DNA from: an uncultured Clostridia bacterium
GTDB taxonomy: Bacteria > Bacillota > Clostridia > Oscillospirales > Ruminococcaceae
Length of the DNA stretch: 64,000 bases
Direction: 5' to 3'
Assembly: GCA_947631575.1 (NCBI GenBank)
Contig: CANRLW010000005.1
Span: forward strand, 4,264 to 68,263
This document shows positions 55,757 through 59,884 of the stretch, one piece after another (position 1 is the first letter of the stretch; the number at the start of each line of letters is the position of its first letter). Under the pieces are notes generated by a model that ran no database searches, had not been told where the DNA came from, and was given only the letters and a program-made list of their open reading frames with translations. The translations under genes were made by a program, and so were the position numbers.

Positions 55757-56050
55757 ATGAGAAAAAATAAAGTTAATATACCAGCAGTTACAAGTTTAAA
55801 GACCGCTTTGGAGATTTATTACACAAAAATACAACTGAACAATGCAGACGTAGCCGAGCTGTTCGGCAACCACGCTCAAAGCACTATTTCCGCATTAAAA
55901 AAGGTTGCAAGAGATTATATGACAGAAAACAAAATTATGTTATACAATTCGAGAGATGTAAACACCAAAGCAGCGTATGCTGCGTGGGGTATCGACATAG
56001 CAGAAATCGAAAGGCGATACAAGAAAAGCAAAGAAATTGAACGAGTATAA
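55757..56050 (+). CDS. Small protein upstream of integrase, possible excisionase/regulator
   Basis: 97 aa, HTH-like NNADVAELFG...STISALK; promoter TTGACA-17-TAAAAT at 55706-55734; RBS AAGGA. Confidence 0.65.
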   Translation: MRKNKVNIPAVTSLKTALEIYYTKIQLNNADVAELFGNHAQSTISALKKVARDYMTENKIMLYNSRDVNTKAAYAAWGIDIAEIERRYKKSKEIERV

Positions 56051-56064
56051 AGGAGTAATTACAA

Positions 56065-57209
56065 ATGCCTATAACAATTGATAATCGCATTAAGAAGAAA
56101 AACGGCGTTTCGCGTTACCGTGTCCGCATAAACTATACTGATACTAACGGCAAACAAAATCAGATAGAACGGTTGGTATGGGAAAAGCAGATGCGGAGAT
56201 TGTCGAGCGTCAATTGGAAATGGAGTTCAAGAACAAAAAGCAGGTCAAATCAAGCAAAATTACCGTTGAAGAACTGTTTTTGATGTATGCCGAGTATCAC
56301 GCGACTGAAACCCGCAAAACCTCACACTATGCTGTAATGAAACGCTTAAAACTCTGGGTTTTGCCTTATTTTCAAGATAAACGTCTTGACAAACTCTCAC
56401 AACAGGACTTCGCAGAATGGAAAGTCAAGATAAACGGAACAAATTTATCTATTGCAAGCAAACAAAACGTTTATTGTGCTTTCGTTGCTATGCTCAATTA
56501 TGCTGTTAAGTTAGAAATGATACCTAAAAACGGACTTGCTGTTCTCGGAAACTTCAAAGACAGTTCTATTCCAGATAAAACAAACGAGGAGTTTCAATAC
56601 TACACCGCCGAACAATTTCAAAAATACATCTCGGTCGCAAAGTCTGAATGTAAAACAATAGAGGATTGGGACTTTTATGTTTTCTTCTGTATAGCCTTTT
56701 TTACGGGCGCAAGAAAGGGCGAAATACACGCTCTGAAATGGTCTGACATAGAGGGTAATATAATGCATATTCGGCGCAGTATTGCTCAAAAACTCAAAGG
56801 AGATGACGTTGAAACTGCGCCTAAAAACAAGAGCAGCATAAGGGATTTACAATTGCCTGTGCCGTTAATGAAAGTTTTAGACGAACACAAACAACGTCAG
56901 ATAGAGTATGCAGGCGAACATTTTAGTGAGGATTTACGAATATGCGGTTGCACCAGACCACTTCGTGATACGACCGTAGACAAGCGGAACAGGAAATATG
57001 CCGAGAAAGCGGGTTTACCTCGTATTCGCATACACGATTTCAGACATTCTCACGTTTCCCTGCTTGCAAATGAGGGAATAAATATACAAGAAGTCGCCCG
57101 CCGAATGGGGCATAGCACAGTTCAGGAAACTTGGAACAGATACAGCCATCTATATCCCCGCGAAGAAGAACGTGCTGTAAATGTGCTGAATAGCATATCG
57201 GTTGACTAA
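56065..57209 (+). pseudogene. Tyrosine integrase split by a -1 frameshift near 56180-56190
   Basis: ORF 56065 (RBS AAGGAG; RYRVRINY arm-binding-like N-terminus) overlaps ORF 56178-57209 with the full catalytic set TGARKGE, PKNKSS, HDFRHS, MGHS, RYSH. Confidence 0.85.
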
Positions 57210-57367: not shown

Positions 57368-57598
57368 ACAACTATTACCGTAATATTATATCACAAATGC
57401 CGATTTTTGTCAATAGGATTTTTTCAATTTTTTTAGCCCGCAAAATTCCGCCAAAATGCGTTTACTGCTATAGACAAAACCCGTCTGCGTTTGTTTTTAC
57501 GCAAGCGGGCTGATTTTGGTTATGTAGTCGGAAACTTTCCCGGCAGGGACATTATATTGTCCGAACCGGGAAAATTTGCGACTGTCTTGATATTATAA

Positions 57599-57694
57599 TC
57601 AGCGATTGTTGTTCTGGTTCTGCTGGTTCTGGTTGTTCTGCTGGTTCTGATTATTCTGCTGGTTCTGCTTGTTCTGGTTATTCTGATTAGACAT
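57599..57694 (-). CDS. 31-aa Gln/Asn-rich peptide MSNQNNQNKQNQQNNQNQQNNQNQQNQNNNR
   Basis: ATG 57694 behind ACAGGAGGAAATAAGTATT; TGAATA-17-CAAAATA promoter at 57754-57783. Confidence 0.7.
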   Translation of the reverse strand: MSNQNNQNKQNQQNNQNQQNNQNQQNQNNNR

Positions 57695-57789
57695 AATACT
57701 TATTTCCTCCTGTGAAAATTCACATTTATTCAGCGGATTTTCTTCCGCAAAAATATTTTGTCCGGATTTTTCGGGAATATTCAGCATTT

Positions 57790-58129: not shown

Positions 58130-58300
58130 TGTATTTCTCTAAATAACGTTTTTTCGCCCTATCCCCCTGCCCTTTTAGAGGTTAGATGTAAGAGGTAAGA
58201 GGTTAGAGTTTTAGAGGAAAGGTTGTTCGTTTTTCGTAAGTTTTCTTACCTCTAACTTCTAACCTCTAGACCCTGAAAAGAAACTTTTTATACAGACAGA
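58130..58300. repeat. Composite repeat locus (partial module B, inverted heptamer arms, MITE-like end)
   Basis: TTAGAGGTTAGATGTAAGAGGTAAGAGGTTAGAG versus CTTACCTCTAACTTCTAACCTCTAG; CCCTGAAAAGAAACTTTTTATACAGAC as at 30769-30795. Confidence 0.85.
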
Positions 58301-59614: not shown

Positions 59615-59884
59615 ATGGTAAAATCAACGGGAATTGTAAGGAAAGTAGACGAGCTGGGGAGAGTTGTTATTCCTATAGAGTTGAGAAGAAACCTCGGTAT
59701 CGACGAGCGCGACGGCATGGAAATATTTGTAGAGGACGACAGGATAATACTTAAGAAATATTCGCCTTCCTGTATTTTTTGCAACAATGCGGGCAATATG
59801 GCTGTATTCAATAACAAAAACGTTTGTACAAGTTGTCTTGAAAAACTGAAAGAGCTTTCAATTGACTCAACTTCGGAATCTTGA
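59615..59884 (+). CDS. abrB: AbrB-family transition-state regulator
   Basis: KSTGIVRKVDELGRVVIPIELRR...LKKY-PSCIFC; promoter TTGACA-17-TATAAT at about 59465-59493. Confidence 0.9.
   Translation: MVKSTGIVRKVDELGRVVIPIELRRNLGIDERDGMEIFVEDDRIILKKYSPSCIFCNNAGNMAVFNNKNVCTSCLEKLKELSIDSTSES

Follow-up and report, generated by a model that had tools for sequence, protein, structure and literature searches.

The 64,000-nt stretch of DNA analysed here (the window) carries on its minus strand a gene that is almost certainly real, conserved and protein-coding, and its product, a 31-residue peptide dominated by asparagine and glutamine, is probably an undescribed small spore protein. Judged from sequence, the conservation of the gene covers one genus of uncultured, spore-forming Clostridia of the gut, with a patchy distribution beyond. 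Small spore-core proteins are central to the dormancy and resistance of spores. To our knowledge, Clostridia are thought to have only alpha/beta-type SASPs and a few minor ones, and we know of no counterpart in them of the abundant gamma-type reserve protein. The reading towards which we lean is that of a disordered, amide-rich microprotein of the spore core that would be made in the forespore.

All elements of the peptide gene lie on the minus strand (Table 1). The initial annotation had proposed an unannotated Gln/Asn peptide gene at this position; the gene is genuine and has the look of a translated one, and the AGGAGG ribosome-binding site (57711-57706) and the upstream TGAATA-17-CAAAATA (57783-57754) that had been noticed with it both stand as read. 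The count of 28 N or Q residues has to be lowered by one, as Asn (15) and Gln (12) together account for 27 of the 31 residues (87% N+Q). Two hairpins had been placed downstream of the ORF. The one at 57476-57510 is real and is the intrinsic terminator, its palindrome being likewise listed as terminator-like in the reading of the plus strand; the second is also real, but it extends over 57583-57526 and not over 57546-57590. The stretch from the 5' UTR to the terminator (57745-57460) folds with a z-score of -5.3. What had been described as a structured 3' region comes down to this terminator and one extra, clade-specific hairpin, and is not a special feature. A longer ORF of 62 aa from an ATG at 57787 was considered and rejected, because it would begin upstream of the promoter and lacks a Shine-Dalgarno sequence (SD), and because stops interrupt its frame in relatives. 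The downstream tRNA-Ser has a perfect TTGACA-17-TATAAT promoter of its own, which sets the peptide gene apart as a monocistronic unit.

Table 1. Elements of the peptide gene and its neighbours, in positions of the window and in the order of transcription.
Feature	Position	Strand	Remarks
spmA-like	59428/59410-58817	-	Gate-domain match
spmB-like	58913/58820-58305	-	Gate-domain match
Orphan 86-aa ORF (orf86)	58050-57790	-	no Pfam/NCBIfam match
-35 element TGAATA	57783-57778 (core GAATA 57782-57778)	-	read directly
-10 element CAAAATA	57760-57754	-	17-nt spacer from TGAATA; conserved G at 57763
Leader hairpin 1, GCGGA/TCCGC	57733-57748	-	near predicted transcript 5' end
Leader hairpin 2, TGTGA/TCACA	57711-57724	-	abuts SD
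Shine-Dalgarno AGGAGG	57711-57706	-	11 nt ahead of ATG
CDS	ATG 57694-57692 to TGA 57601-57599	-	31 codons + stop, encodes MSNQNNQNKQNQQNNQNQQNNQNQQNQNNNR; frame kept across 19 length variants, wobble variation, restricted composition
Long 3'-UTR hairpin	57583-57526	-	about 23 bp, by folding; closest relatives only
Intrinsic terminator	57510-57472	-	stem 57509-57480, then UUUUGUCU; U-run to 57472
tRNA-Ser(GGA)	57367-57277	-	own TTGACA-17-TATAAT promoter 57413-57385

When relatives were searched at the DNA level, the matches fell mostly within the coding region itself. The match in 20 species of the genus is an ORF starting with MSNQN, which is preceded by GGAGG in all 20 and by the full AGGAGG in 18. 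A pattern search found exactly one copy in 35 of the 41 genomes of the genus, and the reversed control pattern gave no match across the same 41 genomes; in the 1.88-Mb genome of the window, the gene is the sole N/Q micro-ORF. Since 6 of the 41 genomes are without a match though SASP genes are present, three of them with a completeness of 95-99%, the gene is dispensable or divergent within the genus. A wider scan of one genome per prokaryote species, for an SD followed by ATG-Ser-Asn-Gln-Asn, returned at least 119 loci. Among the matches listed, about 70 are N/Q ORFs of 26-56 aa, and about 70 other genomes have the whole cassette, from promoter and leader through SD and ATG to terminator. The metagenome-assembled genomes that carry the family are labelled Oscillospiraceae, Ruminococcus, Clostridia or Lachnospiraceae and come from the gut of rabbit, deer, goat, mouse and human; the Lachnospiraceae variant has Y or F at the C-terminus. 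An even sample of 401 genomes of the order contained true MSNQN-type homologues in one other genus only. One typical member (L129, CAVIFG010000056.1; 45 aa, ending in ...NSRNSRS) lies on a contig filed under an Escherichia coli assembly, where it is probably a contaminant from binning or labelling.

The genome of the window is that of a spore former, with SASP, GPR, spoVA and two adjacent Gate-domain membrane proteins encoded upstream of the peptide gene, which are consistent with spmA/spmB, as the initial annotation had it. A separate, single alpha/beta-type SASP gene is located at C1:131241-131399, and SASP genes are found in 37 of the 41 genomes of the genus. The name YaaL-like, given earlier to the next neighbour, is unsupported, as orf86 matches no Pfam or NCBIfam model and has just 4 unnamed homologues. 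Synteny bears out the arrangement in part: the order spmA-spmB-orf86-peptide-tRNA-Ser is kept in about 40 family loci among the matches listed, with orf86 identity down to 31-58% and with tRNA-Ser downstream in most of the spmAB-linked loci, but it is absent from about 25 others among the same matches, in which the cassette lies amid unrelated genes, in at least two unrelated neighbourhoods. In 22 other genera of the taxonomic family that possess spmB, no N/Q micro-ORF was found at a distance of up to 1.5 kb from it. Because of these genera and of the 25 or so unlinked members, we reject a conserved link to spmAB, and the linkage is limited to part of the genus. As the same cassette stands amid unrelated genes, the unit is autonomous and patchy, and the spmAB neighbourhood, which had been taken to be informative, provides no functional argument. 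In B. subtilis, dacB-spmAB belongs to the mother-cell sigma factor, sigma-E.

The surroundings of the gene contain several further features. Between spmB and orf86 lies an imperfect palindrome of about 100 nt (58172-58272) composed of GAGGTTA/GAGGTAA-like units. With about 84-103 occurrences of its core words in the 1.88-Mb genome, it is a member of a dispersed REP/MITE-like family of intergenic repeats; in Rfam it gave only spurious plant miRNA matches. A tyrosine integrase gene (56178-57209, plus strand; PF00589), with a 97-aa ORF just upstream of it (55757-56050), abuts the 3' end of tRNA-Ser(GGA), which suggests that a mobile element has integrated at this tRNA gene. Divergent from spmA, an 89-aa protein is encoded at 59615-59884 on the plus strand. 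It combines an AbrB/SpoVT-type N-terminal domain with a Cys-rich C-terminus that has weak zinc-ribbon and Gin (anti-sigma-G) matches.

A forespore (sigma-F/G) type of the peptide-gene promoter is supported by its conservation across 71 loci and by the spoVA promoter of this genome and genus, to which it is nearly identical. The family form is G-H-A-T-A, a spacer of 17 nt and CAnAATA, the -10 element being preceded at a distance of three bases by a conserved G. Two profiles were made, one anchored only on the -10 box nearest to hairpin 1 and one by best-match selection. In the -10-anchored profile the information peaks at GAATA (-22 to -18), at the G at -3 and at CAnAATAT, and G-H-A-T-A stands at the fixed 17-nt spacing in 48-50 of 56 loci. 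Under best-match selection, the first G of the -35 element and its A, T and A are each present in all 71 loci, the H being A in 50, T in 14 and C in 7; the G at -3, which is not forced by the selection, is found in 68 of the 71 and the final A of the -10 element in 69. The spacer measures 17 nt in 65 of 74 loci. GHATR/CAHWHTA is the sigma-F/G consensus of the B. subtilis literature. The mean fit of the family to this B. subtilis-derived consensus (GHATR-17-CAHWHTA) is 11.1/12, as against 7.2/12 for sigma-A, so that the SigG/SigF match first noticed in a single promoter extends to the family. Promoters of the sigma-E and sigma-K type have -10 elements such as CATATTAT or CATATAAT and -35 elements with ATA or AC (PMC3789822). 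By contrast, the family promoters carry both forespore marks, and since T is rare at the third position of their -10 element, they are not of the CATA type.

The spoVA promoters of the lineage offer the strongest control. In C. difficile, the spoVAC-AD-AE operon is sigma-G-dependent and its sigma-G promoter has been mapped. The spoVAC promoter in the genome of the window, GAATT-17-CAAAATA, is identical to the peptide promoter at 25 of 42 positions, and across the genus the form G[ACT]ATT-17/18-CA[ACG][AG]ATA is present at 16 of 25 spoVAC loci; the -10 box and the spacing are common to both kinds of promoter. The alpha/beta-type SASP promoter of the genus (xAATA-17-nAnAATA, with G at -3 and a 5' hairpin) has the same geometry, its -35 element starting with T where that of the peptide promoter starts with G. 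Upstream of gpr there is an AT-rich region, close to the contig end. A genome-wide regex scan with the strict promoter motif gave 37 occurrences in 1.88 Mb; it was not specific for sporulation genes and so defines no regulon.

The peptide could instead be a vegetative or stationary-phase small protein that is not specific to spores, perhaps a stress hydrophilin or a regulatory peptide, expressed from a sigma-A-like promoter. This reading draws on the weak sigma-A form that the promoter takes in some species (TTGAAT-18-TAAAAT or TGnTAAAAT) and on the six spore-forming congeners without the gene. It is nevertheless improbable, as the invariant A-T-A of the -35 element, the -3 G and the last A of the -10 element fall outside the sigma-A positions, the family does not conserve the first T of TTGACA, and the promoter shares its fit and its near-identity with the forespore side of the comparisons above. 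In addition, distant family members have the textbook elements GAATAA-17-CATACTA or GATACTA. On these promoter features, expression of the gene in the forespore is likely.

Two observations on other promoters of the genus can be added. On the minus strand of contig C15, at about 9.5 kb (minus-strand coordinates), a 42-aa Cys-rich ORF, MNFITCGENCRWQKDGLCALEDLSRACLSLNPSSKCRYYEEK, lies 22 nt behind a perfect motif of the forespore type, GAATA-18-CATTATA, and may encode a CsfB/Gin-like anti-sigma factor. The SASP genes of the genus (L141-L169) have an 18-nt block, aCAATTcCCTTTAATATT, conserved beyond the -35 element and then a conserved GCAAAGG...CCTTTGC hairpin at the 5' end. The block and the hairpin could be a regulator site and an mRNA stabiliser, respectively, and in the clade of the window the SASP leader is about 190 nt long.

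The leader of the peptide gene folds into two hairpins. MAFFT alignment was defeated by the variable loop lengths, and stems were found by anchored detection, which leans towards finding them; with this method, hairpin 1 has a stem of at least 4 bp at the anchored position in all 59 leaders and starts 9-14 nt downstream of the first base of the -10 element, and hairpin 2 has a stem of at least 4 bp adjoining the SD in 39 of 59. Hairpin 1 occurs in compensatory variants (GGCGC/GCGCC, CTGCAG/CTGCAG, ACGGC/GCCGT and CGGCA/TGCCG), and hairpin 2 is built from at least four unrelated stems (GTGAA/TTCAC, GGAGC/GCTCC, GTGAT/GTCAC and GAATTT/AAATTC). Stem-loops at the 5' terminus are stabilisers of mRNA in Firmicutes. 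The codon usage in 20 family loci is strongly one-sided, with CAG for Gln in a ratio of 265:2 and AAG for Lys in a ratio of 21:1, compared with genome averages of 78% CAG and 49% AAG; the genes for EF-Tu, EF-G and RpoB use CAG 59:0 and prefer AAG. Because it combines a strong SD and leader hairpins with a codon usage like that of EF-Tu, EF-G and RpoB, the gene looks built for high output, and repeat expansion, rather than selection alone, may contribute to the CAG bias.

At the 3' end, the long hairpin is present in the closest relatives only, where its stem varies in a compensatory manner (CCCGG:CCGGG, CTCGG:CCGAG and CTCAG:CTGAG in L001-L004). In more distant members its place is taken by a terminator hairpin directly after the stop codon. 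In L006-L020 and others, the terminator stem of the peptide gene is followed in many species by a conserved TTTACATATTTT, an interrupted U-tract, for which only a terminator function is offered.

An ORF made of two amino acids (27 of 31 codons specify Asn or Gln) recalls the classical attenuator leaders, and the gene might accordingly be a regulatory leader that senses charged tRNA-Asn/tRNA-Gln, as a measure of amide-nitrogen status, and controls termination after the stop codon and read-through into the downstream region. The terminator that starts about 5 nt after the stop in many members, and the two hairpins that follow the ORF in the window, would suit such a device. However, neither an alternative (antiterminator) pairing, nor a conserved downstream target, nor in-frame read-through was seen among the family loci, which argues against an attenuator or read-through design. 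Most members possess one plain terminator, the stop codon is TGA or TAA with no conserved frame behind it, about 25 loci have unrelated neighbours, and a perfect sigma-70 promoter of its own serves the tRNA-Ser. Since the N-terminus is conserved, the C-terminus basic and hydrophobic residues excluded, selection appears to act on the product itself, and the sensing leader is very unlikely.

Selection at the protein level is demonstrable by comparison of the family members. The Oscillospiraceae-type members comprise, among the matches listed, 54 distinct peptides of 19 different lengths (26-45 aa), all in frame, and every one of the 54 has the conserved start and the basic C-terminus in a single frame (MSNQN ... 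K/R). The C-terminal residue is Arg in 49 of them, the net charge is always +1 to +4, and N+Q amounts to 77%. A, C, H, I, L, P, V, W and Y are absent from all 54 peptides; yet a single mutation would turn CAG into a codon for His, Leu or Pro, and AAY into one for His, Ile or Tyr. In close orthologues that have the same length, the 69 variable columns are distributed 52/12/5 over codon positions 3/1/2 (chi-square p = 7e-13), and 40 of the 69 variable sites are synonymous. GGAGG and ATG are invariant in a 40-sequence alignment of the leaders. The expectation, formulated with the initial annotation, that a real gene would keep the repeat in frame with its ribosome-binding site in relatives is borne out in all 19 length variants. 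The function of the peptide is proposed to depend on its composition and not on its exact sequence.

These constraints on composition, frame and codon position make a non-coding repeat or a function of the RNA alone fail as an explanation. An unstructured, CA-rich small RNA or sponge with an incidental ORF could appeal to the fold of the transcript, in which the coding part is predicted to be unpaired between structured ends, and to the repeat, which is a simple sequence with TRF periods of 9, 18 and 36. Such an RNA product is hardly credible beside the three-base periodicity of the substitutions and the invariant SD and ATG, and it matches no Rfam family, a search of the window having returned only tRNA and spurious plant miRNA matches. 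A chance ORF in a microsatellite, or an antisense hydrophobic (L/V/I) peptide of the type I toxin kind as the real gene, is effectively refuted, because although the region is a tandem repeat with an in-phase antisense frame that is always open and hydrophobic, this openness follows automatically from the CAG/AAY codons, the antisense (plus-strand) frame lacks an SD and any start codon (ATG, GTG or TTG), and the conservation of promoter, leader, SD, ATG and terminator in about 70 genomes cannot be due to chance.

The peptide encoded in the window has a size of 3.6 kDa, a GRAVY of -3.3 and a pI of 11. It contains no E, F, A, I or G and has no signal sequence. The small size and the basic, hydrophilic character are compatible with the operational definition of a SASP (small, acid-soluble, in the spore). 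AlphaFold, run on a 39-sequence alignment, gave a low-confidence coil with almost no secondary structure (pLDDT 60, pTM 0.15), and the peptide is apparently disordered. Its Q/N-rich, low-complexity composition is of the kind found in prion-like sequences, both in the window and across the family.

For the compartment, timing, abundance, core location and role of the peptide, we infer the following course of events. Late in sporulation, the forespore RNA polymerase would transcribe the gene with sigma-G, possibly already with sigma-F, from a promoter of the same type as that of the spoVA operon. The mRNA would be stabilised by its two leader hairpins, of which the first lies near the predicted 5' end and the second against the SD; the strong SD and optimal codons would lead to a high output of peptide, and the terminator would end the transcript. 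With no signal sequence, the product would be expected to remain in the forespore and to build up in the spore core, where it would act as a dense, amide-rich filler. At germination it could serve as a reserve of amino acids and nitrogen, with Asn/Gln converted to Asp/Glu and ammonium; alternatively or in addition, it could provide a hydrogen-bonding matrix in the dehydrated core. Granted that the peptide is a spore protein, its role as amide-rich reserve and/or core matrix is a tentative assignment. A bolder proposal, which we regard as rather unlikely, is that spore-forming Clostridia, which lack gamma-type SASPs, carry a hidden, convergent class of ribosomally made poly-amide (Asn/Gln) microproteins, produced in the forespore and packed as a major core component, which would be both a dense reserve of amide nitrogen and amino acids and a reversible, hydrogen-bonded (polar-zipper) gel or glass that would help to immobilise the dehydrated core.

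If the assignment to the spore is correct, the family would add a new spore component, with a spoVA-type promoter, to abundant gut anaerobes, and would provide a minimal, naturally occurring system in which to study how Q/N-rich peptides behave inside a dehydrated cell. The family also marks a systematic blind spot of annotation. An exact look-up of 20 variants of up to 56 aa found none of them among about 15 billion predicted proteins, and metaproteomic and comparative studies are therefore currently blind to this peptide family. That gene callers never recorded the 20 variants checked may be a reason for the silence of spore proteomics and annotation.

Comparison with known families returned no match. 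The window peptide has none in Pfam (hmmscan, E <= 0.1) or NCBIfam, and ten diverse family members have none in either even at E <= 10. Neither the gamma-type SASP profile (SASP_gamma, PF04259) nor the alpha/beta-type profile (PF00269), which stands for proteins with DNA-binding helix-turn-helix motifs, was matched by the window peptide or by the ten members, and the same applies to the Pfam and NCBIfam models of the minor SASPs (SspH/I/J/K/L/M/N/O/P and Tlp). A homologue search with a 42-aa member brought up 436 candidates sharing words with it, none of which scored, the composition correction of HMMER making such searches uninformative. In a 2023 review of small proteins in Gram-positive bacteria, the words asparagine and glutamine are absent (PMC10730256).

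The closest functional parallel is SspE, the gamma-type SASP of the Bacillales, for which a role as a store of amino acids for outgrowth has been postulated (PMC10730256). No clostridial genome examined contains SspE, and the only minor SASPs in any clostridia are SspH, SspI and Tlp (PMC3533761); the peptide family described here, by contrast, is clostridial. Like SspE, the peptide is small, very hydrophilic, rich in Gln/Asn and poorly conserved in sequence, and its gene is monocistronic with a strong SD. SspE does not bind DNA and is made in the forespore from a sigma-G promoter, and the peptide gene has, by motif, a promoter of the forespore type. The differences are equally clear. The peptide has about a third of the length of SspE, shows no sequence homology to it and lacks both the internal repeats with GPR sites and the residues E, F and A that are needed there, while the composition of its family is far more extreme (77-87% N+Q, with hydrophobic residues absent). 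The GPR cleavage motif (E-F/I-A/G-S-E type) is absent, A and I never occurring in the 54 distinct peptides, and mobilisation of the peptide would consequently need another protease. The peptide appears to be analogous, not homologous, to the gamma-type SASP, and may work like one.

With the minor SASPs of Bacillus (SspH-P, Tlp), which are spore-core proteins of unknown function, the peptide shares its tiny size (about 30-60 aa), restriction to a lineage, a monocistronic gene whose promoter is, by motif, of the sigma-G type, hydrophilicity and a tendency to be missed by annotation. Unlike the peptide, however, none of them is an N/Q homopolymer-like sequence. The Asn/Gln-dominated composition is instead found in prion-like domains, such as the N-domains of yeast Sup35 and Ure2 and the candidate domain of Clostridium botulinum Rho. 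In contrast to these, the peptide is free-standing, with 26-56 aa in the family, and not a domain of a larger protein, and it does without the Tyr/Gly of the yeast prion domains. Self-association through a polar zipper is plausible for a sequence dominated by Asn and Gln.
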